64,000 nt of DNA from Candidatus Woesearchaeota archaeon (GCA_023898365.1 CP060219.1:334688-398687), one strand, 5' to 3'. Positions 39,712-64,000 are shown, numbered from the stretch's first letter. The notes: generated by a model not told the origin, from the letters alone. Program-made: numbers and translations.

Positions 39712-39712
39712 T

Positions 39713-42136: not shown

Positions 42137-45100
42137 CTAATTATATTTTCTGTTTCTCCAGCGATCACGCACGTAGCTGACAATCATCATAAGGATCGTT
42201 ATTGCAATAACCCCTCCTACTGCAAGAACAACCCGTTCAGAAAGTAAATCGGTGAGGGTCACCATACTAAAAAGACCTCTTGGAGAATCAAGATTTATTT
42301 CATTCTTCTCATTATCAATTAGATACTTACATCCATTTATGATGTTATCAAGCTCGGTTAATGCTTGAGAGATAGGAATACTTGATGCTCTTCGTTCAAG
42401 CTCGGTAAGCAGTTCGTTCATTTCAGCACAGGCAGGGTTTGAAGCGAGAAGGTCTCGAGCAAACGTAACTTTTACTTTGTATGCTTCTTCATCGTCAGTT
42501 GATTTCTCAAGAGAGTTGATATGAATTGTTGCGGAGTCGCTTGCAACGGGATCGTCTGTTGTGACATTCACGACGATTTCATACGTGCCACTCGTGCGAT
42601 AATTGCCAAGAGTAAGTAACGTAGATGCGTTCTGCCCAATACCAAGTGAAGCAACGTAATCCTCACTGAATGTTACCGTAACATTTTCAGAGCCGGCAAT
42701 TGCGTTAAAATTAATTCCGTAGAGCGAATCATCCCAGGTGTTCACAACAGTGATGGGAACCGTGACCGTATCATTTTCATAAACGGCAACTACATCGCTA
42801 ACCACTATTGAGAACGGTTCAGGAGAATCAACTTCTTCCTGGAAAGGCACAGTAACTGTTGTGGTTACTGTTCTTGTTCCGCCAGGATTGTTTGATGTTT
42901 GCACATCAATTACAGGATCGGGAACATTAGTAATGACAATGCGAACCGTATTCGAAGAAACATATGCTCCTGCGTCATCAGTTGCGTTGAAGACCACATC
43001 ACAGTACCCTAATGATGTTGGAGTAATGGTTAAAGACGTATCTGTTATGCTCAGTGTTGCAACAGAGCAAGATTCGCCGTAGGCTAAAGAGAAGTTTAAG
43101 GTTGACGATTCCGCACCATCAAGCAAACCATTTGCGCTGGTATCATCATCTGCATCGTAAAAACGCTGAACGCTGTTACGATATATAAAATAATTTGCAA
43201 GTGCAGTTGTTTGTGAAACAGAGAAGTTATCAAGAGGACCATAAAATACAGGAGGACGATTAAGATTGGCAATAGTAATATTCCAACTAAAGTTTGCCGT
43301 GCTATAATACGCATCAGTTGCACTTACGACAATATCATGTGTTCCCGCGGTTGAAAAGTTAAATGATCTGGTGTAATTTGAATTGACCCCCGGGTCGACA
43401 CCAGGCAAATTAAGTTTCTGCACACCATCAACATACCATCTGTAAGAAATATTATTATTTATCTGGGTCGTGTCGTTTGTCGCGAGCGCATCAAACGTAA
43501 CAGTTGCGTTTTCTGAAAAATTGATGGTGATGTTTGTCAAACCACCAACGACAAACCATGAAGTGTTTAGTGAGGTATTTGACATGAAAGGAGTCACTTG
43601 GGTAAATTGAGGGGGAACAGATTCGTTGTAAATGGTGATGTTAACAAGCTGCCAATCGACCAACCCACCCGCATCAGTAACTGAAGCGTTTGCTTCGTAC
43701 ACCCCATACTCTCCTGATTGAGGAACAAAAGAAACAGTCACTTCATTGACATCCGTTTTTGAGTAAGCAAAGCCCGTTGGTGATGCCCCTGTAAAAGCAA
43801 AGTTAAAGGTCAGATTATCATCAAGAACAAAAAAATCAATATCAGTTGCGTAAAAAACATTTTCATAGAGAACATCTTCAACAAGAATGCCAAAATTGAT
43901 GGCATCAGACACATTGTCTTGATTATTGTCCCATATTGGCGCATCGTTTGCATTGCCTATTTCAAAGGAAAGAACTTCATAATCGCACACATTTGCAAGA
44001 TCACAGACCGAAACATTCAATGTTTTATTTCCAACTTGCGCATTTGTTGGTGTAAAATTCATCCAATAAAGCGTCATGTTACCTTGCACCAGACCAAGGT
44101 TTGACGCGTTAAATCCTGCTTCGTATGCAAACGACCAAGTAAGGTTGTCTCCGTCGCGATCAATTGCGGTAAAGTATGATGAACCAAGAATGCCTTGCGT
44201 ATAATTAACAAGAGAAACAGTCATTACAGGCACCGAATTGTTACGAATAGTGATGTTTGCAATAGCAGTTGTTATAGCCTCACCATCATCAACATACACT
44301 TCGAAGAGGTAATTTCCAATTAGACCTGGACCGACTGTAAAATTAAATTCTCCCGATGTGCTATTAATAGTGAAATTAGAATGGTTTGTTGAAAACGTTA
44401 AGGTATCGCCTGCATATGTTAGTTGGTCAACATCAGAATAATTAAGTGGTGAGGAAAACGTTGCATTCACATACCACGTAAAATTTGAAAGATTGTATAT
44501 GCCGTCGGTTAGTTCGTAAATTACCGGAGCATCATTTAGGTTTAAAATGTTAAACGTGACATTATTCTCCGTATAGCCTCCATGATCATCAGTTACTCGA
44601 ATGCGGACGTTTCGGCAGGCGACGTGGTCATTTGTCATAATTTGGTTGATCACGATAGAAGCGTTCGAACCGTTCACTAAGGTGGTGAATGACCAAGGAT
44701 TTGAAAGGGAGCACGTGCGGGGCGTGATAGTGAACGTGATATTGTCTGCAACATCTGCATCGGAAGCGTTGATATAAAACGTGAAGAGATCTGACTGATT
44801 AGTATCAGGAGTGACTAGGTTCGATGTGATCTGCGGCAATTGATTAACAGCTGAAACGTTAATGGTAAAAGAGGTTTCAACTGGCGGCAATAAACTTGCA
44901 TTGTCGCTAATGTTCATATACACCGTCCACAATCCTCTGTCAGCAAATTGAGGCGCGTTGCTTGGACGGTTAAAGGTAACATACCCTTCCGTGTTTGATG
45001 ACTGAACAAAAATAATTGAAGCAAGATCAGTGCTCATGTTAAAGGTGAACGGTTCGTCTCCTTCCTCATCAAACCCAGAAATTGAATAATTAAACGTGAT

Positions 45101-45775
45101 GTCTTCTGTCGCCTGTTGATTCGTTAAATTTGGTAAAAAATATGCTTGATCATTTACTTCTGCAACTGTGTAGGTTACGGTAATTCCTAAGAGCGAGGGA
45201 GTGTCATCTTTTACATAAAAAGTAAAATTGGTGTCACCAATATGTGCTGCTAAAGGTATGCACGTGACTAATCCCGCCCCAGAAATATCGCAGTAGTTTG
45301 TTCCGTCCGTTTCTAAAAAGGTCAGCGCATCACCATCGGGATCAAAAGCTGAAAGCTGTGTTTGGAAAACGACATCTTCTGTTAAGAGCTCATCAGTTGC
45401 ATTTGGAAGGTTAGGAAGGGAATTATTAATGGTGAACAATTTTCCTGCGGTGGCGCTTGTCGAACCATTCCACAACGTCACATTACAACTCCATCGTTCA
45501 CCACGCTGCGCAATATAGGAAAGTAACGTCGTGCGATTGTCAGTGAACGGAATGTTTGCAACTGTCGTGTAAGGAGAACTGCCATTATACCAAGTCACGT
45601 TTTGTTGTACGGTGTCAATTGAGGGTTTCCAAGAACAGATAATGTTGTCTCTTGTTGTAGGAGTTGACGGCGAAATGCTCGGCAGCGTAGAAAAATTTAC
45701 TGCAAGCGCAAATGCTATGATGAAGAGGGCAAGCGAAGTCACAACAAGTGTTTGGAAGAGGTCAACTCGTTTCAT
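42137..45775 (-). CDS. Giant cell-surface glycoprotein-like protein (~1213 aa from MKRVD) with a signal peptide, a sequon-rich beta-rich ectodomain and a C-terminal TM anchor
   Basis: Signal peptide MKRVDLFQTLVVTSLALFIIAFALAVNF, dozens of NxS/T sequons and the C-terminal TM helix VVLAVGGVIAITILMMIVSYV followed by a basic tail. The track ORF starts further upstream at 45841 and overlaps the RHH gene. Confidence 0.7.
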   Translation of the reverse strand: MKRVDLFQTLVVTSLALFIIAFALAVNFSTLPSISPSTPTTRDNIICSWKPSIDTVQQNVTWYNGSSPYTTVANIPFTDNRTTLLSYIAQRGERWSCNVTLWNGSTSATAGKLFTINNSLPNLPNATDELLTEDVVFQTQLSAFDPDGDALTFLETDGTNYCDISGAGLVTCIPLAAHIGDTNFTFYVKDDTPSLLGITVTYTVAEVNDQAYFLPNLTNQQATEDITFNYSISGFDEEGDEPFTFNMSTDLASIIFVQSSNTEGYVTFNRPSNAPQFADRGLWTVYMNISDNASLLPPVETSFTINVSAVNQLPQITSNLVTPDTNQSDLFTFYINASDADVADNITFTITPRTCSLSNPWSFTTLVNGSNASIVINQIMTNDHVACRNVRIRVTDDHGGYTENNVTFNILNLNDAPVIYELTDGIYNLSNFTWYVNATFSSPLNYSDVDQLTYAGDTLTFSTNHSNFTINSTSGEFNFTVGPGLIGNYLFEVYVDDGEAITTAIANITIRNNSVPVMTVSLVNYTQGILGSSYFTAIDRDGDNLTWSFAYEAGFNASNLGLVQGNMTLYWMNFTPTNAQVGNKTLNVSVCDLANVCDYEVLSFEIGNANDAPIWDNNQDNVSDAINFGILVEDVLYENVFYATDIDFFVLDDNLTFNFAFTGASPTGFAYSKTDVNEVTVSFVPQSGEYGVYEANASVTDAGGLVDWQLVNITIYNESVPPQFTQVTPFMSNTSLNTSWFVVGGLTNITINFSENATVTFDALATNDTTQINNNISYRWYVDGVQKLNLPGVDPGVNSNYTRSFNFSTAGTHDIVVSATDAYYSTANFSWNITIANLNRPPVFYGPLDNFSVSQTTALANYFIYRNSVQRFYDADDDTSANGLLDGAESSTLNFSLAYGESCSVATLSITDTSLTITPTSLGYCDVVFNATDDAGAYVSSNTVRIVITNVPDPVIDVQTSNNPGGTRTVTTTVTVPFQEEVDSPEPFSIVVSDVVAVYENDTVTVPITVVNTWDDSLYGINFNAIAGSENVTVTFSEDYVASLGIGQNASTLLTLGNYRTSGTYEIVVNVTTDDPVASDSATIHINSLEKSTDDEEAYKVKVTFARDLLASNPACAEMNELLTELERRASSIPISQALTELDNIINGCKYLIDNEKNEINLDSPRGLFSMVTLTDLLSERVVLAVGGVIAITILMMIVSYVRDRWRNRKYN

Positions 45776-45938
45776 GTGAAAGTAACCGCTTAATTGTTTT
45801 ATTTTTCTGAACATAGGTCTTTGTCTTTGCTGCGAGCTCATCTAAGACCAGTTCTTTAATCGTTTGCTGAGAAATAACTGATGCTAAACGCAAGCGTTGA
45901 TGCAAGTCGTCAGGTAAAGCAATATTCAGTCGTCCCAT
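45762..45938 (-). CDS. Small ribbon-helix-helix (CopG/Arc/MetJ-like) protein, 58 aa. Unannotated in the ORF track.
   Basis: Manual translation: MGRLNIALPDDLHQRLRLASVISQQTIKELVLDELAAKTKTYVQKNKTIKRLLSHETS. The N-terminal beta-strand plus helix (RLNIALPDDLHQRL) is the classic RHH signature. Its stop overlaps the surface-protein ATG. Confidence 0.55.
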   Translation of the reverse strand: MGRLNIALPDDLHQRLRLASVISQQTIKELVLDELAAKTKTYVQKNKTIKRLLSHETS

Positions 45939-45953
45939 GTTACATCCTACACA

Positions 45954-46100
45954 TTAAGTTTTTTTGCCTACTGGTTCAAGTGCTTGCGCATCCTTAAGCC
46001 AGGAGATAACTAGTTCTTTGAGAGAGGTTTCTTCAAGTGTTGCGATCATTTTTAGCTGATGATGCAATTCTTGCGGTAATTCAATATGTAAATTCGCCAT
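45954..46100 (-). CDS. Small ribbon-helix-helix protein, 48 aa, a paralog of the gene downstream. Unannotated in the ORF track.
   Basis: Manual translation: MANLHIELPQELHHQLKMIATLEETSLKELVISWLKDAQALEPVGKKT. It has the same RHH signature. Confidence 0.55.
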   Translation of the reverse strand: MANLHIELPQELHHQLKMIATLEETSLKELVISWLKDAQALEPVGKKT

Positions 46101-46103
46101 AGT

Positions 46104-46148
46104 CAATTAGTTAGCATAGTTCGCTTAGTTCACTTAGTTTCCTAAGTT
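46104..46148. repeat. Five tandem 9-bp direct repeats (NNNTTAGTT: caattagtt, agcatagtt, cgcttagtt, cacttagtt, tcctaagtt) between a TTTATAAA TATA box (46177-46184) and the RHH ATG. Candidate iteron-type operator.
   Basis: Exact 9-bp periodicity of the TAGTT core at 46108, 46117, 46126, 46135 and 46144. Confidence 0.6.
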
Positions 46149-46210
46149 CGTTTACTAATTCATAAGAACTGCGAAATTTATAAAGGTGTTGATTGAAAAA
46201 AGAACAATAG

Positions 46211-48274
46211 TTACTTCTTTGCCCACGTTAATGAATACGTAATTTGCAAGAATAACCGATGCAGATCGTAAAAGACCATGTCCTTTTGCTGCTGCGTTAA
46301 TGGGTCGAACACCTCTTTTAATTCAAAATATTTGCGCTTTGCAATCTCCGTTTCTTGAAATTCGAGGGCTAAGAGTGCATTACGAACACCTAGCTTAATA
46401 CGTTCCACAGGATTTCCTTCGAGATCCAATTCTTGCACAACACGATGAACGTCGCGTTCTTCAACAACGCTAATTTGATACACGAGCATCCGAAGTTCTT
46501 CGATAAGCAACGGAATATCTGCAAAAGTTACTCTGCGATGTTTGAACTCGAACTCAGAAACCTTTGTGTTAAACGATAAGAAAATCTTCTGCAACGTTTC
46601 GGACTTAATTTTTGTGCGAATTTCCTCAAGCAATTCGTTTGATTCGTACTCAAAAGCAAGATCAAACGTTTGTGAAAAAAAGAAGCGACTGAAATCCATG
46701 AGCGAATCAAGAAGCTTTTCAAGAGCGTCTTTTGCAGGATCATTTCCTAACGAAAGAAGTTTATTTTCAAGTGCGGCGAGTTTTACGAGTAAATCATTCT
46801 TTTGGGTTTCCCTGATAAGAATCTGCTTTCGAAATGAAGAAAGCAAGAACCAACCAAGCGTGACCAGCGCTTTATTAATCTTCGTTGAGAATGCACGGTA
46901 TAACACTGCAAGCACAGCAACAGAAAGAATACCGACCATGATAACCCCTGAAAAGACAGGGTTTGTTTCTTCAAAAAAAGAAGGAGATTGCACACCAATA
47001 CAAGGAGAGCAAGGCCCACCACAATCAACACCCTCTTCATCTTGGTTTTTTATACCATCAAAACAAGTCTCGCATGGCTCGCAAATAGGCCCGCCACAAT
47101 CAACACCCACTTCATCATAATTTCTAATGCCATCATGACAATTCTGGCACGGAGCGCAATACGGTCCACCACAATCAATTTCTTCCTCTTCATTATTTAA
47201 TTGGCCATCAGTGCAATTGCCACACGCAGGACAGGGACCCCCACAATCAACACCCTCCTCGCCTTGATTTTGTTCGCCATCAAAGCACGTCAGCAAATAT
47301 TCACATTCTTGCCAGTAATACTTTTTATACTCATTAGGATCACATGCATAAATATCGACACATTTGCGTCGCTGCGTGCCATTACGCAAACACGCACCCC
47401 AATCAGCACATTTCCATAAAGAGGTACAATCGGTAATACTCACACTCGAAGAGGAAGGAGAAGTAGTTTCTTCTTGTACTTCTTGTCGGCAGTTAACTTT
47501 AATTCTCACCAAATTACTTTGAGCGGAAAGATCACCTGGGTCCGTGGCAGTGAAAATAACATACTCCTCTGCGCAAGTAGAGCCTCGAATAAGTACTTCT
47601 CCAGTATCTTCAACAATCACAATATTAACGGAAGAAGTTGGCGTTACCGAAAAATTCAACGTATCACCGTCAGGATCATCAAAATAATCGTTAAGCCAAA
47701 AAACACTGTACAAAATATCTTCTTGAAGCGTTTGATCAGGAATAGGAGATTCTAAATTTGGAGGATCGTTAATATCTAGAACAGTAAATGTGTAGATGGA
47801 AGACGCATTGTTGTTGTCACATCCACTGTTGTCAACAACTTCAATTAATGATTGGTGCAGACCAACAGAAGCTTGAAATCCGTTCAAAGAAAGTGTTGTC
47901 CCAGTGAGCGTAGTGTTCATTTCAAAAACTTCAGTGGCAGAAATAGTATATCCTCCCTCATCAATAATTGAAATGACACACTCATACGCATTATCAACAA
48001 GCGCTGTTGATTGGTTAAAAGTTGCTGAACACCCAGAAAGATCGATAACTGGACGTGCATTAAAACACATTTGCACAGACCCTGTCGCCTTCCCCGAAGC
48101 ATCTGAATTCGTGTCGTGATACATAAATCGCGCAACACTACCTAGTAAGAGAAGATTCTGAGCTATTAAGAAGATCGCTACAAAGAGCACAATTCCTGTA
48201 AACAAACGATCAGATTTCGTTCGAGTAGCAGCAAGATGCTCAAGTGGTTTTTTCTTGTGTTTAGCGCGCTTCAC
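46211..48274 (-). CDS. Surface protein (687 aa) with an N-terminal TM/signal anchor, an ectodomain containing 4 tandem 25-aa Cys-rich CGGP repeats, a second TM helix and a cytoplasmic coiled-coil tail
   Basis: Repeat units of the form C-x-DG-x-x-N-x-x-E-E-G-VDCGGP-C-x-x-C, occurring four times. The underlying ~75-bp nucleotide repeats (ggcccaccacaatcaacaccc) lie at ~47013, 47089, 47164 and 47236. The TM helix VIMVGILSVAVLAVLY is followed by a helical K/E/L-rich C-terminus. Confidence 0.65.
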   Translation of the reverse strand: MKRAKHKKKPLEHLAATRTKSDRLFTGIVLFVAIFLIAQNLLLLGSVARFMYHDTNSDASGKATGSVQMCFNARPVIDLSGCSATFNQSTALVDNAYECVISIIDEGGYTISATEVFEMNTTLTGTTLSLNGFQASVGLHQSLIEVVDNSGCDNNNASSIYTFTVLDINDPPNLESPIPDQTLQEDILYSVFWLNDYFDDPDGDTLNFSVTPTSSVNIVIVEDTGEVLIRGSTCAEEYVIFTATDPGDLSAQSNLVRIKVNCRQEVQEETTSPSSSSVSITDCTSLWKCADWGACLRNGTQRRKCVDIYACDPNEYKKYYWQECEYLLTCFDGEQNQGEEGVDCGGPCPACGNCTDGQLNNEEEEIDCGGPYCAPCQNCHDGIRNYDEVGVDCGGPICEPCETCFDGIKNQDEEGVDCGGPCSPCIGVQSPSFFEETNPVFSGVIMVGILSVAVLAVLYRAFSTKINKALVTLGWFLLSSFRKQILIRETQKNDLLVKLAALENKLLSLGNDPAKDALEKLLDSLMDFSRFFFSQTFDLAFEYESNELLEEIRTKIKSETLQKIFLSFNTKVSEFEFKHRRVTFADIPLLIEELRMLVYQISVVEERDVHRVVQELDLEGNPVERIKLGVRNALLALEFQETEIAKRKYFELKEVFDPLTQQQKDMVFYDLHRLFLQITYSLTWAKK

Positions 48275-48331
48275 ACCCTACCAACCCCATATCACCATGC
48301 AAGACAGGCTCGTATATAAATGTTTTGAGCC

Positions 48332-48784
48332 CTACTTCTCATAAAAAGCCAAAACAACGTCTCCAGAACAGTTAAGATCCATTTCTTCTGGTGGAGCGGT
48401 GACATGGAATTGTAATTCAAAGGTTTCATCAGCGGCAAGAGAAAATGTTTTGTTACGCACCCACAAAAACTCCGTACACGCACCATCAAGCGAAACAAAG
48501 ACGTCAGAAGGAAAAGGAGAGGTAACAAACAAAGTTCGCGAGGCTGCTGAACCAGGCGTTAAAGTGCCAAGATGGATAGCGTCAGTTCCCACATCAAAAC
48601 CTGCAAGATCAGAAACATAAAAATCATAAGGAACACGCCTCACTTCATCAGGTTCAATAACATTCCAATAAGAGAAATAAGCAATTATTAGCGAAACAGA
48701 AACAAGCAACACAAGTAAAACCAAGATAACAAGCCAGTTTGTTGAAACGTCTTGAGGTGATGGTTTTTTTGTTGCGCGAGCCAT
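48332..48784 (-). CDS. Small N-terminally anchored extracellular protein (150 aa), hypothetical
   Basis: N-terminal TM helix WLVILVLLVLLVSVSLIIAYF followed by a beta-rich domain. Confidence 0.5.
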   Translation of the reverse strand: MARATKKPSPQDVSTNWLVILVLLVLLVSVSLIIAYFSYWNVIEPDEVRRVPYDFYVSDLAGFDVGTDAIHLGTLTPGSAASRTLFVTSPFPSDVFVSLDGACTEFLWVRNKTFSLAADETFELQFHVTAPPEEMDLNCSGDVVLAFYEK

Positions 48785-49999: not shown

Positions 50000-50656
50000 T
50001 TATGCCTGCGTTACCGTGAACGTCAGATTGAAATCGTGTCGTCCAGTATTTACTCCAGAGGGAACCATCATCGCAACATCGATGGCAAGTGTTCCTGCAG
50101 GATCAAGATCATCACAAACGACATGTTCTATCATCGCTCCTGCGGTGAAGTTCACATAACCACCATTCGTTCCAAGAGTTCCAGCGCAGTCATCTCCTGT
50201 TTCTGTTGTCTTATACGCAAGCCATGAAAGATCTTCTGCATACTGCGAGTCAAGAATGAAATATCCTGCTGAAGTGTTTTGAGCTTCACCCGTCTTACTT
50301 GGAGTCACATTAACATAACCTTGTACGTTCCCATTATTTTGCAAGTCAAATTGATCAGCATTAAAACCAGTACAAACTGATGCAGTATCATTTGAGTCAT
50401 CAGATGTGATGGTAGAATTTGCTCCTGCTTGTGGCTGGCAATTTCCAAAGTCAATATCCGAATCAAGCAACGTAATTGATGCCTGAGCACTCACGTTTAG
50501 GAGAACAGAACCGTTTGCAAGTGATGCAAAACCCGTTATGTCCGTTCCTCCTCTTGACATAGAAGAAAGTAAGTTCAAACTCATCATTGTTCCGCCAAGA
50601 GATACTACCAATGCCGCAACAAGAATCATTGCGAGCGTTCGATTTGAAACATCCAT
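50000..50656 (-). CDS. Secreted or N-terminally anchored protein (218 aa), hypothetical
   Basis: N-terminal hydrophobic helix LAMILVAALVVSLGG followed by an S/T/N/G/D-rich domain with sequons. Confidence 0.5.
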   Translation of the reverse strand: MDVSNRTLAMILVAALVVSLGGTMMSLNLLSSMSRGGTDITGFASLANGSVLLNVSAQASITLLDSDIDFGNCQPQAGANSTITSDDSNDTASVCTGFNADQFDLQNNGNVQGYVNVTPSKTGEAQNTSAGYFILDSQYAEDLSWLAYKTTETGDDCAGTLGTNGGYVNFTAGAMIEHVVCDDLDPAGTLAIDVAMMVPSGVNTGRHDFNLTFTVTQA

Positions 50657-55500: not shown

Positions 55501-58500
55501 ATGGTGCAAGCGATACAGACCATTATTGTACGACGCGTTAATTTCTTCTACGGTGAGTGCACGTTTATGGAACACGACTTCATCAAGATCTCCATTGAAA
55601 GCAAACCAACCCGCACCTGCGTTAGGCCAGGACGTACCAAAACCAATACCAATGTGATTATAATTCATAGATAAGTGATTTATTGCGCCGTTTAACGTGC
55701 CAACATACACGCCGTCCAAATACATACGCTGCGTAGTTGTTTCTCCGACAAGTGCGACATGGTGCCATTGACTATCATTGACAGTTCCTGCTGTTGTTAT
55801 CGGGTTCTGACCCCCAATCCAATATTCTCCCCTCAGTTTACCATCGGTACCAACATAGATGATCGGCACCCAGTTTGCAGGATTTGTAGGATAGGCAGTG
55901 TTTTGATAACCTAAAATTACCCCGTTGGCACTTGTTTTAAACCAAGTCATAAAAGTGATTTCTGTGTTGTTGCGCACTAAGCGATCGGTAATTCTCAAAT
56001 GATCATTCGTACCGTCAAAGTTTAATGCAGTTCCTCGTTTTCCAGGCACCAAATCTGAAACGCTTAATCCATACGCAAAGCTCGCAAAACGCGGATTGCT
56101 TGAATTACCATAGGCGCCAGACGAGTTCGTGTAATCAAAACTCCAATACGCCATAACATCATCATTGAATTCTAAAATTGCAGATGTTTCCAAAGCATCA
56201 GTAGTAGTTGTGTTCAAACCAGCATATGATTCATAAGAAACTTCTCCCTGAGAAGGCGTGGTGGACTCCCAAGTCACTGTTGGGTAAGGAGATGTTGCAA
56301 CGAGAGCTGAAGAGTTGCCAAACGAACTTTGACTAGTGCCATCATCAAGACGCATACTGCAAATCCACTGATCACCTTGTGTGATATTACTCTTTGTTAA
56401 ATTAACAACAATGAGCGAACCTGAAGCAAAGCTTGAGTTGTAATAGCGAACTTGATCAAAAACACCCCCCTTATACCACCACACGGTCACGTTCAAATCA
56501 TCATCGTCAGGATCCACAATGGTTGCATTACAATGAAAATCTTCATCTGATGCATTCAAACGAGAGGTGGCATTAATCCAAGGTGTTGGTGTTGTAGGGC
56601 CAAGGTTGAGAATGGTAAGTCCTGTACTGTTTCCCCAAGCACTCTGGTTTGTACCATCATCAAGACGCATACTACAATTCCAAATATCGCCAACAGATAA
56701 GTTTCCAGATGAAAGATTGAAAACGACAGTGGAGTCATCAGGATAACTGTTGTTATAATAATCAGTTCTGTTTAAGAGGCCGTTTTTGTGCCAGGTCACT
56801 GTCACATTCATATCTGAATAATCATAATCTGAAATAGTGTCAAAACAGTGCAAGTCTTGCGTGGTAAGATTCGTGCCATCAGTTGAATTAATTTCAGGCG
56901 TTGGTGTGGTTGGGGCAGTATGTGGCGAATAACCAGAACTTAATGCGTGGTAATCATCATCGAACTTAGCAACACTATAGGTGTCGTCACAAATACCGTC
57001 ATTGTCATCATCGGCACAAATTTGTGAAAATCCACCGGTTGAATTTGCCCAAAAATTACCACCAATGGTTACACCAGAACCATATATGCGGTTTCCGGTT
57101 TGAACTGAAGTGTTCCAAGCATTATAACCTGAACCAGCAGCAACATTGTTTGTGTTGTTAAAGAAATTGTTGTAAATGGTGATAAGTTCAAACATGCCTG
57201 GACCACCAGAGCTTGAAAGTTCTAAACCATAATTGGTGTTGTTTGCAAACCAATTATTATAGATACTAATGATATCGGTATTTGAAACAAACATGCCACT
57301 TCCTAAGTTATTTGTAAATGTATTGTTGTAATAACCACCGTAGCTCAAACCCGACAAATATAATCCTTCATCTCCGTTGTTTGAGAAATTACTCTGGAAG
57401 ACATTAATAAATGAAGAAGTTCCAACAGACACATACATACCATCATCGGCGTTGTACGTGCTTGTTACATTCTTGAAATCATTTGGTTTTGACGAGCTAG
57501 TAACGGTAATCCCATAATTTGCATTCGAAACAAACGCAGAATCATTAATCTCATTGCTCGAAGAACTCGAAGTAATTTCAAGACCGTTATACGTATCACG
57601 CACCGTCACATTCGTGATGGTCGCAGAGTCTGTTTCGACAAGCGAGATGCCGTTGTTTTCTTTATCAGTGTGGTCCATAAGAACATCAGTTACTGATGCT
57701 CCGTCAGCATTACAAAGAATGAGTTGTGAAAGGTTGTTGTTCCATCCTTGGATTGTTCGAGAAGTGTTCACGTACACGATTGGTTTGTTATCCGTGCCGT
57801 TCACGTTAACCAGATTGTTACCGGTACAAGTTGCAGTTCCCGTTATGTAAAAGTCATATTGGGTGTTATTCAAGAATCTGCTATTTTTAAAGGTGTTTCT
57901 GCTGCCAGAAGAATAGGCCACCCCACTTATTTGGTTTCTCAAAATAGAAACATTCGTGAAGTTAGAATATGCTGCGGCAATCATGCTTAGACCATACTGC
58001 GTATTCCCATGCGAGGAGACATTTTCAAAAGAAACATTATCAGAATTTACGAATCGAATTCCATACGTTGTGCCGTTGTAAAATTCTGAATTGTAAATGT
58101 GCGCATAATCTGAAGACAATACGTAGATGTTGTAATTAAATTCTTTTGCCACACAATTGTTCACGGTAGCGTTATACGATGAAGAAAGCACGTAGATACC
58201 AAAACTTGCACCAGTGCCGTCAACGTAATTTCCTTGGCAGTCAAGAGAAACATTTGCGGCGTTAATGGTCAAACAATTTCCAGCAGCATAATTATCAACA
58301 GATGATTTGAGTTCGAAATCTCCTCGTCCACCAATGGTGTCCCCGCACGTCACCGCATTAGTAACGGACAAGTTTGTGCTGTTCGTAAAACCACTCAAGC
58401 CAGTGCCATCATCTAAGCGCACACTACAATTCCAATTATCGCCAACGGAAGTGTTACCACTTGCAAGCGCGGCACTAAACGACGTGCCATTCGCATAGCT

Positions 58501-61500
58501 GTTGTTGTAATACCGCACTTGATTAAAGACGCCATCCTTATTCCAAAACACCGTCACATTCAGCGCATCGCCATTCGGATCAGAAATCGTTGTTGAACAA
58601 TTTAAGTTCTCATACGACCAATTATTTCCTGTTGCTGTTCGTAAAGAAACAGAAGAGGGGGCAGGAGGAGGAGAATTACCTTCTCGCACATCAAGTGTCA
58701 ATACATCAGTTTGCAAGAAATTATCGTGCACTGCAAATACGGCAATTGCGTTATCAATACTTGATACCGTATATAACTTTCCGGAGAGCAAAAATATTCT
58801 TCCCACACCATCAAGAGAGTAAGGTTCTGCACTATCAACGTATTGGAAAATAGGAACAGGGTTGGCAGGATTTGCAACATCAAGAACAGTAACCGAGTCG
58901 TTATCATAAGAACTCGCAAATAAGTAATTTCCTGAAATGGCAAGCCCTTCAGCATCAGCCACAGAGTAAGGCAGTCGTTCTTTTGAATAATTTCCAACAA
59001 ATACTGGGTTAGCAGGATTGCTTAATTCAAAAATACTAATAGCGTCCGTGATTGTTGAAAAAGATACGGAGACATACACATAATTATTTTCATAAACCAT
59101 TTGCTCAGTGCTGGTAAGAATTGATGTGGGCGTTGCAAGATACTGCCCAACACCGACAAGATTGCTTGGATCGGAAGCGTTGAGAACAGTAAAAACGTAA
59201 TCATTATCTCCCACTACATAAACATAGTCTCCATTAACATAAAGTACGTTAGCACCGTCAACGCTGTAAGGAGGAGTGGCCGTCGTATAATTTTCAAAAG
59301 GAACAATTGCGGAAGGATTACTCACATTAACTAAAGTAACAGAATCATCAATCTGAGAAGTGACATACGCAACATCCCCAACAACCATTATTGCATCAGC
59401 ATAATCAAGAGAATAAGGAGAAGCACTGCTCACATGATCATCTAAAAAAGTGATAGCGTCAGGATTGGAAACATTGACAAGTGTCAAACTGTCATCATAG
59501 AGCGACACAACATATGCGATGTTATCTTTGACAAATACATTTTGAGAAGTGTCGACAGAACCTGGAGGGGCATTATCCACATAATCATCGCGAGGCCCCA
59601 TACCTGCAGGATTAGATACGTCAATGAGCGATAATGAAAAATCATCATAGGAAGTAACATAAGCAATTGTTCCAACAACATACAAGCCGAAAGCACCATC
59701 AAGTGAAGCAGGGCCCGATCCTGCAGATGTGCTCCCTAAAGGACTTAAGAAAGAAACTTTTTCTCCTTCGACAAGAACCGCAACTTCTTTTGTTGAAGCG
59801 TTAACATAGTATGAGCCTCCACTTACTACGGGACTGTTCAAAGAAAATTCTGTTGCAGCTCCCGATTCAGAATAATTCAATTGAACCCATGCGTTTGATG
59901 TCCAATTCCACAAACTAATGTTGACTGTGTATCCTGAATAATTATCTCCAAAACCTTCCCAGCTTAAAGTAATATTATCAATCGCGCTTGCGTTATAGAT
60001 ATTCGCGCTCAAATTGTACACATAGACTTGACTGTTAATTGTGTTGTTTGTGCCATTCAAATCTGTTTTCCATCGACGATCATCGCTCGCGTTCATGTAA
60101 AAATAATCAACCTCAGCACCTTCAGACAAAGAAGGATCGAAAGGACCGGTTGGTGTTCCTTGCATTTCGTAAATGGAAAGATTGGTGTGACCAATAACAA
60201 TTTCTAAATTTGACGAAGCATTCCAAGCAGAATAATTTGTACCATCATACACGCGCATCGCACAAGACCAATTATCGCCAAAAGTTGTTAGCGTGTTTGA
60301 TAGGTTAATAACGAGAGCACTATTATTACCATAACCATTCCAATAATACGCTGTGTGATTGTAGCGATCGTTCAAGAACCATTTAACAGTTACGTTCATA
60401 TCATCATTATTTGCATCATAAATGGTTGCAGCGCAATGTAATTCCTGACTTGTTAAGTTGGTTCCTCCAGAAGTGGTCAGAGAAACCGCTCCAGTATACG
60501 GAGCAGCATTGACATCACCGGCAAGAGGAGCATAATCGACATTATTTCCATCAAGCGTTTTGTCCGTATCACAAATTCCGTCGGCGTTGCCATCAACACA
60601 CGTTTCAGAATAGCCCGTTCCTGTTGGTGTTGCCCAGTAATTACCACCAATTTTTGTTCCCGCACCAAACACGCGATTTCCTGTACCTTCTGTCGTGTTC
60701 CAATAGTTTACATAGGACGTGCCACCGATAAACTCATTTGTTGTACTATTAAAGAGATTGTTGTAGAGTCTGTTCGGATTGTTTAACCCGGCACTTGTCA
60801 AAGCGATCGATCGTGTTCCCGCATCTTGAAAGGTGGAGTTTGCAACGACCGTGCCCCTCGATGAGGCAAGATACAATCCGTACGAACCAGCTGAAAAAGA
60901 ACTCACGTTGCTAAGCGTGTTGTTAATTGATGAGGAGATATAATACCCGGTTGTAGCGGCTCCTTGAGAAGTTATATTCGTTATACGATTTCGGTGACTT
61001 GAAGTCAACTCCACATCATATTTGAATCCTCCAAGAGAAACATTAGAAATTGTTGCATCGTCAGTTAAATACAAGTACAACCCACTGTTGATGTTTGAAG
61101 TAACCACCAAAGATGAGTTAGCAACAACTGAATTATCCGCGTTACACAGAATAAGCATTGAAACATTATTGTTCCAACCAGAAATGGTCGAGGTCTTGTT
61201 ATATAATGCAATTGGTAAGTTTTCTTCCCCCGTAACATTTTGCAATGTTAAAGAACAAGAATAAACAGTTAAGTCTTTGATCGATTCGCCTGTGAATGAA
61301 GAGTTATACAAGTTATTGTTAAACGAGTTGGCAGTAAAATACATTCCTGAACCAGCCGAACTGGTTACGTTAATGCGTTCAAACGAATTACGATATGAAT
61401 TGGTGACCCAAAAACCATCGTCACCCCCTGAACTGTTTGCTTTGACAAACCAAGAATCGTTTATGCGATCAAGCAAATAATCAGGACCTTCGGCAGAACC

Positions 61501-64000
61501 TGATCCGCTGATTTCTTCAAAATGACTGTTGGCAACATATTGCAAGTCAAAGGCATAACCAAAATCAGCAAACGAACAATTTCCTGCAGTAATATTATCA
61601 AGATACACGCTGCTTGTTCCTTTGATATTCAATCCAGCGAAAATATCTCCAACTCCCCCAAGAGCATTTCCTTGACAGTCAAGCTCCACATCTGATGAGG
61701 TAATATCAATACAGGGTGCGCCACTATTATCATAGCCAGCAACAGGAGAAGTGACCACGTAATGACCAGGTACAGAAATAGATTCGCCGCAGGTAACTGT
61801 TGATTGCAAAATAGTAAGATTCGATGAATTAGCCCACGCGCTCATCGCATCCCCATCATCCAATCGCAAACTACACGTCCAGTTTTCGCCAACTGAGGTG
61901 TACGTGTAAGACAAGTTTGCTAAGAATAGCGAACCACTCGCATAACTATTATTGAAATACGTTGTGTTAACAAGCACCGCATCGTTGTACCAACGCAAGG
62001 TGATATTGAGATCGTCACTGTCTTGATCTGTAATGGTCGCATTACATTGCAACGTTTCATCAGTTTCATTCTGGCGATTTGACGTGTGCACATTAACTGT
62101 TGGAATTTCAGGTGCGATGTTTGAAACAATAACCGAATCGTTTTTCAACGTCCCGTTTTCGTAGCCATCGTAAGGAATGACCGTACACGTCACATTTACT
62201 GCTTCATCACACCCACCGACAGCACCACAATCAAGAGAACCGTTATTTGACGTAGGACCTTGCTGCGTTTCAAAAACATCATCAAAGAACCAGCGATAAT
62301 AATATTGGGCGGCGTCACCTTGACCATCAGACCAGCCTGAAGGAGAACAATTAATTGTAGAATTTGTATACGCAGGATCAGTTACCGTAACTCCTGTAAT
62401 ACTTGGTAAAGAATTCATGATGAAAGCATCGATTGCGGAATAACTTACAGAATACGCCTGACCATCAAAATTACGAAGACGTAATCCATAGGAAACCCCG
62501 TCTGTTAATGTTTGATTGTAACCAATAAGATGGCTTGAAACACCCGTCGTCATGTTTTGCTGTAACCAGGTAATATCATTTGTTTGAGAAATAGTGTAAA
62601 TAGTGTCCCCGTCATCATCTGTGCCAACAGTGAAATTAATAAGGGGAAAATGCTGTAATTGATGCCCATTATCAAGGTTCGAAACCATAACAGGGGCTGG
62701 TGGCGGCGTGTTCGAAATAGTAATTGAAGTGTTTACTTGCGTATTTGCTCTGCTCACGTTTCCCGTGACGTTTACTTTACACCACCACGTATTCGTTCTC
62801 GACGTGTTCCCCGAACCCAAGGTGAAATTATATGTTGAGTTATACGGTGGTGAAGTGAAGATATGCTTGACAAATTTCTGTGTTGAGCCATTAAACCAAT
62901 AAACACTTACATTCATTGCCTCGTTAGCTGTTGAGTTAATGGTAAAATTACACAGCAAATTATTTGCAGTAAAAGCAGGATCGGGAGTAATATCTAAGTA
63001 TTGAATGGTGATGTCAGGTGTTAACGTTAAGATGTAAGGATTAAATCGAAACAATGACTGAGAAATACTTTGATTAGAAAAATTATATCGATAGCCAGGT
63101 TTTGAAGCACCAACAGTAAAATTTCTGTAATCAATATCTATTCCTGCATTATCAATAGTGTAGGGAGTAATCACTCCTTTGTTCGTATACCCGTCAGCAT
63201 TGGTGAGTTTTGAAAGAACAACAGTATCTCCTGAATTATTTACTTCGATGGTAACACCTGAAAGAGGAGTACCCAGAGAATCTTCAATATAGGCAGTAAA
63301 ATATTTTTGAACGTTAACCGTACCCGTTCCAAAAAAATCAGCTAAACCACTTTCATTGAAAGAAGCATTCAATAAATTAATGGTGAATTGGTTATTCCCA
63401 AGAAATATCGAATATCTTTGAGAGGGATGGATACACGAAGAATTGATGACCGTCACCGTCCCCGCATTATTAACCATAAGACAAGATGAGAAAGGGTTCG
63501 CTCCCAATCCCGAAACTTCCAAAAGGGAACGATCAATGGTGACTCCATCTCCGGGTGTAGAAAAGACCTTGACAACATACTGGTCGTTATTTGAAAAGTT
63601 TGTACGATTCACAATAAGACGAGAAACGTTATTAGGCTGAAACTGGCCTAAAAATGAAGAGTCGAGTATGGTTGCATTTGACCATAGTAATTCGAAGCTT
63701 TCTGCGGCTTGAGAAACACTCTCCCAATCAACAAAACGCATTTCAAAATAGGAAGGAGTGTAGAAGTTGACATAAGGCATGAAAGTCATATTAACGGAAG
63801 TAAAATTATTTACCGTTGCATTAACATAAAAATTATCTACAGCGGAACCGCTTTTATTTAACCACGTGTTAGAAATATCAATGGTTGAATCTCCACGAAT
63901 ATCAACAGTGTAATAATTGTTCGTCGCACCCCTCGTCACGACCGTATTATTTGCAGTGACTAGCGTTGTGCCATTATCAACATACAACCCAAATGCGTTG
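52549..64000 (-). CDS. Giant extracellular protein, partial (>3812 aa; the N-terminus lies beyond the window end). It contains two LamG/ConA-like lectin domains, right-handed parallel beta-helix (PbH1) repeats, LVIVD repeats and many Ig/PKD-like sequon-rich modules.
   Basis: LamG: NFDGTNDHLRITDRL...ITFMTWFKT...WHHVALVGETTTQRMYLDG and LYFDGTNNHLEFP...FTVSFWLQT...WHHVVVVRESSTAYVYIDG. Beta-helix: NCVAKEFNYNIYVLSSDYAHIYNSEFYNGTTYGIRFVNSDNVSFENVSS... LVIVD: GTIAYVTSYDDFSLSLIDVSNP, DNIAYVVSLYDDSLTLVNVSNP, GDVAYVTSQIDDSVTLVNVSNP. There is no stop before the window edge. Confidence 0.8.
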   Translation of the reverse strand, partial: NAFGLYVDNGTTLVTANNTVVTRGATNNYYTVDIRGDSTIDISNTWLNKSGSAVDNFYVNATVNNFTSVNMTFMPYVNFYTPSYFEMRFVDWESVSQAAESFELLWSNATILDSSFLGQFQPNNVSRLIVNRTNFSNNDQYVVKVFSTPGDGVTIDRSLLEVSGLGANPFSSCLMVNNAGTVTVINSSCIHPSQRYSIFLGNNQFTINLLNASFNESGLADFFGTGTVNVQKYFTAYIEDSLGTPLSGVTIEVNNSGDTVVLSKLTNADGYTNKGVITPYTIDNAGIDIDYRNFTVGASKPGYRYNFSNQSISQSLFRFNPYILTLTPDITIQYLDITPDPAFTANNLLCNFTINSTANEAMNVSVYWFNGSTQKFVKHIFTSPPYNSTYNFTLGSGNTSRTNTWWCKVNVTGNVSRANTQVNTSITISNTPPPAPVMVSNLDNGHQLQHFPLINFTVGTDDDGDTIYTISQTNDITWLQQNMTTGVSSHLIGYNQTLTDGVSYGLRLRNFDGQAYSVSYSAIDAFIMNSLPSITGVTVTDPAYTNSTINCSPSGWSDGQGDAAQYYYRWFFDDVFETQQGPTSNNGSLDCGAVGGCDEAVNVTCTVIPYDGYENGTLKNDSVIVSNIAPEIPTVNVHTSNRQNETDETLQCNATITDQDSDDLNITLRWYNDAVLVNTTYFNNSYASGSLFLANLSYTYTSVGENWTCSLRLDDGDAMSAWANSSNLTILQSTVTCGESISVPGHYVVTSPVAGYDNSGAPCIDITSSDVELDCQGNALGGVGDIFAGLNIKGTSSVYLDNITAGNCSFADFGYAFDLQYVANSHFEEISGSGSAEGPDYLLDRINDSWFVKANSSGGDDGFWVTNSYRNSFERINVTSSAGSGMYFTANSFNNNLYNSSFTGESIKDLTVYSCSLTLQNVTGEENLPIALYNKTSTISGWNNNVSMLILCNADNSVVANSSLVVTSNINSGLYLYLTDDATISNVSLGGFKYDVELTSSHRNRITNITSQGAATTGYYISSSINNTLSNVSSFSAGSYGLYLASSRGTVVANSTFQDAGTRSIALTSAGLNNPNRLYNNLFNSTTNEFIGGTSYVNYWNTTEGTGNRVFGAGTKIGGNYWATPTGTGYSETCVDGNADGICDTDKTLDGNNVDYAPLAGDVNAAPYTGAVSLTTSGGTNLTSQELHCAATIYDANNDDMNVTVKWFLNDRYNHTAYYWNGYGNNSALVINLSNTLTTFGDNWSCAMRVYDGTNYSAWNASSNLEIVIGHTNLSIYEMQGTPTGPFDPSLSEGAEVDYFYMNASDDRRWKTDLNGTNNTINSQVYVYNLSANIYNASAIDNITLSWEGFGDNYSGYTVNISLWNWTSNAWVQLNYSESGAATEFSLNSPVVSGGSYYVNASTKEVAVLVEGEKVSFLSPLGSTSAGSGPASLDGAFGLYVVGTIAYVTSYDDFSLSLIDVSNPAGMGPRDDYVDNAPPGSVDTSQNVFVKDNIAYVVSLYDDSLTLVNVSNPDAITFLDDHVSSASPYSLDYADAIMVVGDVAYVTSQIDDSVTLVNVSNPSAIVPFENYTTATPPYSVDGANVLYVNGDYVYVVGDNDYVFTVLNASDPSNLVGVGQYLATPTSILTSTEQMVYENNYVYVSVSFSTITDAISIFELSNPANPVFVGNYSKERLPYSVADAEGLAISGNYLFASSYDNDSVTVLDVANPANPVPIFQYVDSAEPYSLDGVGRIFLLSGKLYTVSSIDNAIAVFAVHDNFLQTDVLTLDVREGNSPPPAPSSVSLRTATGNNWSYENLNCSTTISDPNGDALNVTVFWNKDGVFNQVRYYNNSYANGTSFSAALASGNTSVGDNWNCSVRLDDGTGLSGFTNSTNLSVTNAVTCGDTIGGRGDFELKSSVDNYAAGNCLTINAANVSLDCQGNYVDGTGASFGIYVLSSSYNATVNNCVAKEFNYNIYVLSSDYAHIYNSEFYNGTTYGIRFVNSDNVSFENVSSHGNTQYGLSMIAAAYSNFTNVSILRNQISGVAYSSGSRNTFKNSRFLNNTQYDFYITGTATCTGNNLVNVNGTDNKPIVYVNTSRTIQGWNNNLSQLILCNADGASVTDVLMDHTDKENNGISLVETDSATITNVTVRDTYNGLEITSSSSSNEINDSAFVSNANYGITVTSSSKPNDFKNVTSTYNADDGMYVSVGTSSFINVFQSNFSNNGDEGLYLSGLSYGGYYNNTFTNNLGSGMFVSNTDIISIYNNWFANNTNYGLELSSSGGPGMFELITIYNNFFNNTNNVAAGSGYNAWNTSVQTGNRIYGSGVTIGGNFWANSTGGFSQICADDDNDGICDDTYSVAKFDDDYHALSSGYSPHTAPTTPTPEINSTDGTNLTTQDLHCFDTISDYDYSDMNVTVTWHKNGLLNRTDYYNNSYPDDSTVVFNLSSGNLSVGDIWNCSMRLDDGTNQSAWGNSTGLTILNLGPTTPTPWINATSRLNASDEDFHCNATIVDPDDDDLNVTVWWYKGGVFDQVRYYNSSFASGSLIVVNLTKSNITQGDQWICSMRLDDGTSQSSFGNSSALVATSPYPTVTWESTTPSQGEVSYESYAGLNTTTTDALETSAILEFNDDVMAYWSFDYTNSSGAYGNSSNPRFASFAYGLSVSDLVPGKRGTALNFDGTNDHLRITDRLVRNNTEITFMTWFKTSANGVILGYQNTAYPTNPANWVPIIYVGTDGKLRGEYWIGGQNPITTAGTVNDSQWHHVALVGETTTQRMYLDGVYVGTLNGAINHLSMNYNHIGIGFGTSWPNAGAGWFAFNGDLDEVVFHKRALTVEEINASYNNGLYRLHHNFTGLSNADYNFSAIVIDAGGNMTVANRSYTVLIDPLVEIYKNASTATLSVDTIYVNWSAVDGSGLDTVLFNVTYPNGTVIFSSTDATGDINLTPQNLTVTGLYSINLQAIDTDANMMSTSDTFSVLADTTPPVITWLSPTPVDGSSRTLNHATLNTSISDSLDTSAFFDWDGSLVAYYNFEYVNTTGVKDNSSNNNFGRFTDGLSINDVAPAMYGNGLYFDGTNNHLEFPTDSGPLSGTGPFTVSFWLQTNGTGTWQTILQQRDEITTGQYSVLVRATGPIYFYDWSGSYGFQLNSASSVDDGEWHHVVVVRESSTAYVYIDGSLDNSTGGTARNILSARDLAVGYDIRDSNKPFEGMLDELIIWNTNLTAAEISSVYNNTVNRLYRNQSDLSPATYSYSAWAIDGAGNIATSSREVTVDPGATTPDTPLPGINSTDGSNATGQDLHCFAQVNDPNGNDTNVTVRWYLNGVLDRTDYYNNSYANEVAVDTVLGYTNTSVGDNWSCAMRLDDGAEFSGWGYSVNLTVVTVAPTTPSPQLRSENGMNSSNEYLNCSATIYDSDLDNLNVSVRWFKDGVLDQTRYYNNDYPSSQAFYAILTSDNTSVGENWNCSIQLDDGVYQSSWGNSTNLSIVNSDPSVNKPVITPSNPNATQNLTCSFTITDSNPGETLWANVSWFKNDAYYSSANESGQTSGVGDSSILHYAHTSFGESWNCTVTPYDGNAGSGSTNYSDAVSIGNSLPSIPVLDYPDNESTITNRFPTFNWTASTDADGDDINYTVNLTAPSGLGCYGFLLNSSQNINNYTTTTELCTLAQYSSGSFQFQVRACDFYGCSNFSSPHFFNVTNVVSISLVTNETDFSNLNPGVTDDSTDDDPSPMVIRNDGNVRINVSINATQSFFVTEELNTSYFQYKADQDEASSFNTTGSSTSWLNVTNVSTRFIHTLQYNDTKDQAQVDFKITIPTYETPGIKSTLIVFLATADNPP

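Follow-up and report, generated by a model that had tools for sequence, protein, structure and literature searches.

Gene content of the locus

The stretch of DNA analysed here (64,000 nucleotides (nt) from Candidatus Woesearchaeota archaeon, GCA_023898365.1, CP060219.1:334688-398687; hereafter the window) carries, between positions 42137 and 64000, 11 consecutive open reading frames (ORFs) that all lie on the minus strand, the plus strand being devoid of any convincing gene. A previous reading made from the sequence alone (hereafter the sequence-only reading) had described this region as a single-strand "super-cluster" of surface-protein genes. The single-strand run is borne out and the clustering is genuine, but this loose grouping is actually a conserved multi-gene cassette with a recognizable internal logic, the order of which recurs in dozens of diverged genomes. 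We give about even chances to the reading that this cassette encodes a membrane-anchored surface complex of Woesearchaeota and Nanoarchaeota, to which variable giant glycan-binding adhesins dock through beta-strand complementation.

Read along the minus strand, the cassette begins with a giant ORF (X*; 52549-64000), of which 3,816 codons are in the window. Its frame is open to base 63999, with no stop upstream of 63987, and its N-terminus lies beyond the window edge. An identical locus on the Logan contig SRR12358675_171688 encodes a giant product of 5,753 amino acids (aa), in keeping with the partial protein of more than 3,800 aa reported by the sequence-only reading. The giant ORF is followed by H413 (Hx; 51311-52552, 413 aa), G117 (50958-51311, 117 aa), F77 (f; 50678-50911, or F80 at 50678-50920; 77-80 aa, called as 77 aa on Logan contigs), E218 (E; 50000-50656, 218 aa), D382 (He; 48796-49944, 382 aa), C150 (C; 48332-48784, 150 aa), B687 (B; 46211-48274, 687 aa), two genes named RHH2 (45954-46106, 50 aa) and RHH1 (45762-45938, 58 aa) after the ribbon-helix-helix (RHH) fold, and A1234 (A; 42137-45841, 1,234 aa). 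The giant and H413 genes overlap by a true ATGA, which is the only one of the several proposed earlier that holds; H413 and G117 overlap by 1 nt (TGATG) and the remaining junctions are gaps of 11-104 nt.

An archaeal RNase P RNA (19309-19637, plus strand; Rfam RF00373, 113.5 bits) confirms that the genome is archaeal, and H413 and E218 are identical to the NCBI proteins H6502_01940 and H6502_01925 of a Candidatus Woesearchaeota metagenome-assembled genome (MAG). Both results agree with the ultra-small symbiotic archaeal (DPANN) host that had been supposed. Every cassette protein carries an N-terminal hydrophobic segment, except G117, both RHH proteins and the giant fragment, whose N-terminus is out of the window. 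H413, D382 and A1234 possess a C-terminal transmembrane (TM) helix and B687 an internal one. Per 100 aa, the giant, A1234 and E218 contain 5.1, 4.9 and 4.1 N-x-S/T sequons, compared with 0.0-0.9 for the window's cytoplasmic proteins. Sequon density and TM topology thus support the extracellular or membrane location already proposed for the cassette surface proteins and not a cytoplasmic one. As no hydrophobic segment or TM helix is seen in the giant fragment, its extracellular location is deduced from its sequon density.

The giant adhesin and its terminal domain

The three kinds of domains that had been recognized in the giant by the sequence-only reading all correspond to Pfam families scoring above their gathering thresholds. 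Laminin_G_3 (PF13385) matches two stretches (144.9 bits for a cutoff of 27.6, E = 2.8e-42; 153.8 bits and E = 5e-45 on the excised region, with Laminin_G_2 at E = 1.2e-10). This places two LamG/concanavalin-A-like lectin domains within 54373-56043 (minus strand, as all features of the giant), at about 55522-56043 and 54373-54837, the first copy being positioned by BLAST alignment. NosD (PF05048) matches three stretches (131 bits for a cutoff of 23.6, E = 5.4e-38, best at 2109-2318) and Beta_helix (PF13229) four (63.5 bits for a cutoff of 25.9, E = 2.3e-17, best at 1930-2078). The right-handed beta-helix block assigned by these two families extends over 57034-58200, and a second one was read from the sequence at about 60505-61797. 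LVIVD (PF08309, cutoff 20.2) reaches 27 bits on the whole protein and 42.2 bits (E = 5e-11) on the excised region; two stretches pass alone and additional degenerate repeats are visible in the LVIVD-repeat region (58660-59652, best repeat 58840-58956).

Nine copies of a repeat of ~97 aa (W-x-C ... DDG), named REP97 and without any match in Pfam, make up the remainder of the giant. These copies, found between 53305 and 62985 by an iterated hidden Markov model (HMM) search with E values of 1e-23 to 1e-42, occupy aa 339-426, 634-730, 1172-1267, 1784-1879, 2367-2463, 2472-2566, 3265-3360, 3369-3465 and 3477-3565 of the fragment; the same repeat also opens the N-terminus of the A1234 family. No ATPase was detected in the giant by Pfam on the window fragment or among the Pfam families on record for the 5,753-aa product, and no glycoside hydrolase or lyase family was found by Pfam in any cassette protein. 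In sum, the giant is an extracellular adhesin, probably glycosylated, that combines lectin-like, beta-helix and LVIVD modules.

The giant ends with a beta-sandwich of the E218 type (52564-52956), deprived of the helix, the TGxA motif and the first strand that precede it in E218. Positions 81-208 of the E218-family profile match aa 3682-3812 of the fragment, within its last 131 residues (E = 7.8e-17), and the E218-like proteins of a second genome (L003) match this terminal domain too. When search filters are off, an E-type domain is found at the end of all ten other adhesins that precede an "H f E H" string (those of L006, L020, L031, L038, L039, L046, L058, L059 and L061, and a fragment in L032), where it sits within about 6 residues of the C-terminus and is never accompanied by the helix. 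In the more distant genome of L003, a LamG giant of 4,651 aa encoded downstream of f-E-H-C-E (12557-21155 of that locus, plus strand) opens with an E218-like N-terminus (…RKGTLIAAVLALIVV…RLTGFVA), its C-terminus being beyond the locus. An adhesin can therefore carry the helix of the E family instead of, or besides, the terminal domain.

The E218 family and the mini-protein F77

An exhaustive profile search gathered 1,056 sequence clusters of E218 relatives of ~205-245 aa, without any match in Pfam, NCBIfam or the sequences of the PDB. Their common architecture includes a conserved leader and helix, the TGxA motif, an N-terminal strand and an immunoglobulin (Ig)-like beta-sandwich. The AlphaFold2 model of E218, built from an alignment of 87 sequences, has a predicted local distance difference test (pLDDT) score of 87 and displays a helix (residues 4-35), a linker of lower confidence (pLDDT 66-69 for residues 31-50) and the beta-sandwich. 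The best fold matches of this model are weak (best Foldseek E = 2e-3) and are almost all donor-strand pilins or the pilin domains of tip adhesins (FimH, PapG). The top Foldseek match, the unidentified pond fibrils TLP-1a/b, was rejected as an identification since its scores are too low (TM-score 0.38, E = 2e-3) and these fibrils match proteins of Flavobacteriales.

The leader follows the consensus M-D-I-S-N-[KR]-T-L-A, in which position -1 is neither G nor A and the [KR][GA] motif is absent. None of the 87 members of the family matched the pilin or flagellin N-terminal models of NCBIfam. A TasA/SipW-type signal or a class III pilin signal on E218 was discarded, as neither has support from NCBIfam or Pfam in these 87 members. 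A relationship between the E domain and the domains of the H proteins was likewise rejected (hhalign Prob 1.9%).

F77 carries the leader and TM helix of the E218 type followed by two short 'G.V.L.I' strand motifs and does not include any beta domain. It matches positions 1-57 of the E218 profile only, i.e., the leader, helix and first strand (E = 1.6e-5). The members of the f family consist of a helix, a linker and one or two 'G.V.L.I' motifs (two in 20 of 40 members), after which they end. The distribution of the domain therefore defines three forms: the bare domain that terminates adhesins, E with its helix, strand and domain, and f with nothing but helix and strands.

A juxtamembrane motif, (I/L/V)TG[FYRKQ][A/x][T/S], was also noticed 3-15 residues past the N-terminal TM helix of several cassette proteins. 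It is found in E218 (residues 41-44, ~50525-50536 of the window), B687 (residues ~62-65), some A proteins and the N-termini of the adhesins of L031, L038, L046, L059 and L061, and 60 of 87 E proteins and 14 of 36 B proteins contain TG.A. This motif may serve for cleavage or sorting, or form a structural strand.

H413 and D382, remote homologues of WxLIP proteins

In H413, Ig-like domains stand between a signal peptide and a C-terminal TM helix (TM helices at 10-28 and 388-406); the protein is a paralogue of D382 (E = 9e-11). Comparison of the profile of the H family with that of nine WxL-interacting proteins (WxLIP) from plasmids gave a highly significant match covering both domains (hhalign Prob 98.7%, E = 4e-16, 191 columns). 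Pfam recognizes WxLIP_HBD in 4 of 34 H relatives (best E = 3.4e-8) and WxLIP_PGBD in one of them, and a PDB profile search with the H family retrieved 9i1y, EfmWxLIP1 (E = 0.011). The H proteins of the window themselves have no WxLIP match in Pfam, H413 giving only sub-threshold matches to CARDB, BsuPI and MG2; TcfC E-set matches are found in 2 of the 34 relatives and are marginal. The H family also has the organization of WxLIP proteins, in which the Ig-like domains DUF916/PGBD and DUF3324/HBD precede a C-terminal TM helix. These data show that H413 and D382 are remote homologues of the WxLIP proteins (DUF916, DUF3324 and TM helix) of Gram-positive bacteria.

The H copies encoded beside adhesins, including H413, form a clade of their own with 10 members, D382 grouping with the copies adjacent to E. 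The existence of this separate clade indicates that the pairing of adhesin and H is old and specialized.

Conservation of the cassette in DPANN genomes

A scan restricted to one genome per species returned 58 loci, the ORFs of which were called and searched with the family profiles; the counts below refer to 59 loci. Nearly all of the 58 bear the titles Woesearchaeota, Nanoarchaeota or Nanobdellota. The order that recurs is (X*–H)–f–E–H–C–(E)–B–RHH–RHH–A; u430 comes next, on the other strand, and MoxR often lies after it. The f gene is directly upstream of E in 40 of the 59 loci, and E is succeeded by H in 43 of the 47 whose downstream sequence is long enough to tell. E-H-C runs in this order in 36 loci, and 17 contain the complete string up to B and A. 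A and u430 are adjacent in 16 loci. The tandem RHH pair separates B from A in 15 other loci. The order f-E-H persists at 25-40% protein identity, and the locus of L003 still associates small proteins similar to E218, H413 and C150 with its LamG protein. The recurring RHH pair, the G117-type genes and the gene order show that the whole region together with u430 is one conserved block.

The hypervariability suggested earlier for this locus concerns the adhesin module only, X* ranging from 425 to 5,753 aa or being absent, while the rest of the cassette is conserved. An ORF of ~820 aa that often precedes f was rejected as a cassette member, as it encodes an aminoacyl-tRNA synthetase. In the 59 loci, no conserved gene family accompanies the cassette beyond u430 and MoxR/DUF58/VWA, the other ORFs of these loci not having been annotated with Pfam.

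Contigs titled 'uncultured Methanosarcinales archaeon' (L009, L017, L021, L022, L025, L027, L028 and other TPA_asm loci) carry the cassette as well. As these loci match the cassette order of Woesearchaeota (compare L009 with L008), the organism label is probably wrong.

Other cassette members and neighbouring genes

C150 consists of an N-terminal TM helix and one Ig-like domain. It is related to the helix and first strands of the E family (hhalign Prob 96.3%, E = 1.9e-9) and, by its later part, to the first domain of the H family (Prob 96.6%, E = 6.5e-10). By these profile comparisons, C150 is a bridge between the E and H families.

B687 includes an N-terminal TM helix, a cadherin/Big_9-like ectodomain, Cys-rich repeats, a TM helix (440-458) and a cytoplasmic helical tail of ~230 aa. 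Of 28 relatives, 17 have Big_9, and others have cadherin-like domains. The protein contains 28 Cys, and its residues ~280-440 (46955-47437, minus strand) form four to five repeats of the type C.DG..N..E.G(V/I)DCGGPC..C, which do not belong to any Pfam family. These repeats are kept across the B687 family, with D417, C418, G419, G420, C422 and C425 being near-invariant. The u430 gene (40790-42082, plus strand) encodes a cytoplasmic protein whose family matches the B687 family (hhalign Prob 98.9%, E = 2.3e-17); u430 is a soluble paralogue of the B687 tail.

A1234, a multi-Ig/cadherin-like surface protein very rich in sequons, has a TM helix at each end, the C-terminal one being an anchor, and its relatives match Big_9, He_PIG, PKD and cadherin. 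Its likely start is Met23 (position 45775), which is invariant across the family and would reduce the overlap between RHH1 and A1234 to ~14 nt only. The assignment of RHH2 and RHH1 as regulators is partly upheld: their matches to ParD (E = 2.1e-5 and 8.7e-4) are weak and below the gathering score, but the tandem pair is maintained in other loci, as indicated above. The HTH_10 regulator proposed by the sequence-only reading is not recovered, since PF04967 is absent from the G117 matches at E<=0.1, which include only weak helix-turn-helix (HTH) ones such as HTH_Tnp_ISL3 (E = 0.0058). Relatives of G117 are found in tandem upstream of the X* genes of L031, L038, L046, L059 and L061, and the copy of L031, the one scanned, matches Sigma70_r4_2 (E = 1.3e-11). 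As far as these matches tell, G117 is a small HTH protein of the sigma-70 region-4 type and not demonstrably HTH_10.

The cassette is flanked by MoxR (AAA_3), DUF58 and VWA/BatA genes (37841-40699, minus strand; Pfam). MoxR follows u430 in 11 other loci (L006, L007, L012, L015, L031, L035, L038, L039, L046, L049 and L059) and lies upstream of the cassette in L005. These Bat-like genes are syntenic neighbours whose membership in the cassette is uncertain.

Elsewhere on the minus strand of the window, genes for tRNA-Ile, tRNA-Asn and tRNA-Thr are found at 36079-37378. Three consecutive ORFs of 922, 711 and 686 aa (1363-4131, 4162-6297 and 6290-8350) have no Pfam match, no TM helix and a very low sequon density, and probably encode cytoplasmic proteins. 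They are followed by an oxidative-stress cluster (8527-10330) encoding two peroxiredoxins (AhpC/TSA), a desulfoferrodoxin-like protein and a regulator of the Fur family. At 11736-15997, the gene of a DUF11 protein (830 aa, 2.2 sequons per 100 aa) overlaps the start of that of a 589-aa membrane protein, and the gene at 19652-21502 encodes a Cys-rich protein of 616 aa that combines a signal peptide with a C-terminal TM helix. The cassette profiles do not match any of the envelope proteins of these last two regions.

A docking model for giant adhesins and its alternatives

Two key elements of the locus had been overlooked by the sequence-only reading in addition to the mini-protein F77: the E218-type domain that ends the giant and the two WxLIP-homologous paralogues H413 and D382. 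Combined with the comparative data, they lead to the following model, to which we attribute a probability of about one half. The E-type domain would be an incomplete or rearrangeable sandwich, as proposed for WxL and WxLIP, and a strand supplied by H, by F77 (its tethered strands) or by E218 (its N-terminal strand) would complete it. The C-terminus of the adhesin would thereby be clamped to proteins held in the membrane by their TM helices, which would stand in for the peptidoglycan binding and LPXTG anchoring of bacteria. With the adhesin so held, its exposed modules (LamG, beta-helix and LVIVD) would bind glycans on the host cell or on the substrate. B687, u430, A1234, both RHH proteins and G117 would be conserved accessory, cytoplasm-linking and regulatory parts. 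Docking is suggested by the synteny, the shared terminal domain, the homology of H with WxLIP, the dedicated H clade, the parallel gene order of bacteria and the extracellular location deduced from sequons and TM topology.

Several data weigh against this model. Its relationship with the WxL system does not demonstrably extend to the E domain. No WxL Pfam match is found in E218, the giant or the 87 members of the E family. The comparison of the E profile with 16 WxL domains is not significant either (hhalign Prob 1.6%, E = 0.03), so that profile comparison does not support equating the E domain with WxL. Conservation in E218 is highest in the leader and helix, a feature that a simple model of a 'WxL-like secreted domain' fails to explain. 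The adhesins of ~2,000 aa found in other genomes bear their own N-terminal charged segment and TM helix, and C-terminal docking would therefore be unneeded for mere retention. In addition, about 1,937 residues at the beginning of the giant are outside the window, leaving its N-terminus unseen, and all analyses of the cassette rest on MAG sequence. Finally, we only infer the strand complementation, and the attachment of the giant to a host is likewise something that we infer.

The same three forms of the domain can be read as the parts of a donor-strand-exchange pilus, an alternative that we consider unlikely. In such a chaperone-assisted DPANN fibre, an archaeal counterpart of chaperone-usher pili, E218 would polymerize head to tail, each subunit lending its N-terminal 'G.V.L.V' strand to the following one. 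The giant would be an exchangeable tip adhesin, the membrane-embedded F77 a basal anchor or terminator and the WxLIP-like H proteins membrane-tethered chaperones. The forms would indeed be complementary, the giant and the ten other X* being acceptor only, E both donor and acceptor and f donor only. The fold matches of E218 point to donor-strand pilins and tip-adhesin pilin domains, a linker of low confidence separates its N-terminal strand from the fold, and archaeal donor-strand filaments are known (AbpA, threads, cannulae and Tat-dependent tafi-type pili). However, the fold scores are weak, no usher-like or other assembly pore was found in the cassette and E218 keeps a highly conserved TM helix, so that a cleavage would be needed to free the donor strand, the TGxA site being unproven. 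The N-terminal membrane anchor of some adhesins would be odd for a distal tip subunit, and the homologous bacterial WxL and WxLIP proteins are thought to form stoichiometric complexes, not pili (PMC10599100). If true, the E218 fibre would be the organelle by which Woesearchaeota and Nanoarchaeota seize their hosts, and the WxL clusters of Gram-positive bacteria would share the strand-exchange principle.

The conserved gene order could also have a more trivial cause. The cassette might encode independent envelope proteins (S-layer-like, cadherin-like and adhesins) kept together by shared regulation or inherited synteny, without any specific complex, the shared E-type domain being merely a common Ig-like module. 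A1234 and B687 are generic multi-Ig/cadherin-like proteins, and MoxR and the aminoacyl-tRNA synthetases are also syntenic, which indicates that synteny reaches beyond function. Nevertheless, this explanation appears rather improbable. It does not account for an E-type domain that is always at the extreme C-terminus of the adhesins, nor for a dedicated clade of H paralogues always encoded next to them. In addition, the f-E-H order survives strong protein divergence, as noted above, and H is homologous to a family defined by the binding of cluster partners (PMC10599100).

A complex processing polysaccharides, as originally proposed for Csc/WxL in Lactobacillus, would turn the beta-helix (pectate-lyase/NosD-like) and LamG (glucanase-like) modules into enzymes or binders for external glycans instead of host-cell adhesins. 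The presence of NosD/Beta_helix and concanavalin-A-like 'lectin/glucanase' domains and the role in carbohydrate acquisition proposed for Csc clusters (PMC1534035) fit this view. It is nonetheless very unlikely, as Pfam found no glycoside hydrolase or lyase in the cassette proteins and the conserved block does not include any sugar transporter; moreover, it is the adhesin module that varies, as would suit recognition more than catalysis.

Least probable of all is a type IV pilin-like set, in which E218, F77, C150, B687 and some adhesins would carry class III signal peptides, with the prepilin peptidase for their processing and the pilus ATPase encoded elsewhere as for archaeal pili and the Sulfolobus bindosome: the short leader of E218 followed by a very conserved helix of ~30 residues and a beta-sandwich, the occurrence of this N-terminus in several different cassette proteins and a very weak GspG match of F80 (E = 0.16) are outweighed by the ISN[KR]T leader devoid of a [KR][GA] cleavage motif, the failure of pilin and flagellin models on all 87 members, top structural matches that are not type IV pilins, the absence of pilus ATPase, platform protein and prepilin peptidase among the cassette and flanking genes of the window scanned with Pfam, and a conserved part of the 59 loci that comprises only the cassette families, u430 and MoxR/DUF58/VWA, the remaining flanking ORFs of these loci being unannotated.

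The docking complex thus remains our preferred reading, held at the even chances stated above. Attachment to the host is a central open question of DPANN biology, for which giant LamG-type proteins are the usual suspects, and how such proteins are mounted on a wall-less cell is unexplained. The locus offers a concrete and testable architecture, in which four small partners (f, E, H and C), present as far as the available sequence extends in about 60 diverged genomes, are associated with a shared docking domain at the C-terminus of the adhesin and with a dedicated partner paralogue beside it. It also defines a large unannotated protein family (more than 1,000 clusters) with a confident model.

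Comparison with known systems

In the literature searched, no description was found of the docking cassette, the E218 family, the terminal E-type domain or archaeal WxLIP homologues. That giant LamG proteins are candidates for DPANN attachment is already known, LamG-rich giant surface proteins having been proposed as factors of host attachment or recognition (PMC10266531, PMC6642349). The giant resembles these LamG/PKD and SPEARE proteins, which are very large, strain-variable and membrane-associated and combine LamG with Ig-like domains (PMC10266531, PMC6642349). Unlike the giant, in which none was detected, SPEARE-type proteins, which are linked to secretion, possess a VirB4/TraG-like ATPase (PMC10266531).

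The donor-strand filaments TasA, AbpA bundling pili, Sulfolobus threads, Pyrodictium cannulae/DUF1102 and tafi-type pili have no sequence relationship to the cassette. Their subunits have ordinary cleaved Sec or Tat signals, no giant adhesin shares their subunit domain and no WxLIP-like partner is known for them. With chaperone-usher pili (Fim, Pap and the archaic Csu), the resemblance is structural: their pilins and the pilin domains of FimH and PapG are the best matches of the E218 model. An adhesin ending in an acceptor-type, pilin-like domain and accompanied by Ig-like partners also resembles their adhesin-chaperone arrangement. In contrast to these pili, the cassette has neither an outer membrane nor detectable sequence homology, its partners are membrane-anchored and no usher-like protein was found among the cassette proteins of the window by Pfam and NCBIfam.

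The closest parallel is with the WxL/Csc clusters of Gram-positive bacteria (Lactobacillales and Bacillales), which are defined by a minimum of one WxLIP along with two WxL proteins within four genes (PMC10599100) and have been reported almost only in Bacilli (PMC9772566, PMC10599100). In the clusters from ten plasmids used for comparison (L063-L072), a small LPXTG protein is followed by a small WxL protein, a WxLIP and a large protein whose C-terminal domain is WxL; an HTH gene is often near. The cassette likewise associates a small protein with one beta domain (E218) and large adhesins ending in that domain (the giant and ten others), between which an Ig-like protein of ~340-420 aa with a C-terminal TM helix is encoded. 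An anchored mini-protein of ~80-120 aa lies upstream and an HTH gene is close by. The large proteins of both systems bear lectin-like and beta-helix adhesin modules (for the bacterial side, PMC9772566), and the H proteins are sequence homologues of WxLIP, a strand of which was predicted with AlphaFold2 to complete the WxL sandwich (PMC10599100).

Some features of the proteins themselves invite the same comparison. The collinear arrangement of three motifs in the E and WxL domains scores globally above 30 of 30 block shuffles, which is a hint only, and the C-terminal strand is T.TFTA in E vs TLTW.L in WxL. The small WxL and small LPXTG proteins of the plasmids were also seen to open, past their signal peptide, with a strand-like motif ('EGSIGFTG', 'DGQITFTPG') and a Pro/Asp-rich linker. 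These N-termini mirror the N-terminal strands of E218 and F77, and tethered donor strands may be common to both systems.

The two systems differ in their anchoring and in part of their gene content. The host of the cassette is a DPANN archaeon without murein, in which peptidoglycan binding is not expected. Anchoring relies on TM helices instead of LPXTG and peptidoglycan: no LPXTG motif is found in the cassette, and F77, the positional equivalent of the small LPXTG protein, is anchored by its N-terminal TM helix. The E domain lacks the Trp-x-Leu motifs and E218 has a highly conserved N-terminal helix. C150, B687, u430, the tandem RHH genes and A1234 are additional conserved members of the archaeal cassette. 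With H413 and D382, the family of WxL-interacting proteins extends from Bacilli to archaea. Because the same logic is realized with a different anchoring chemistry, the cassette offers a comparative handle for both fields.

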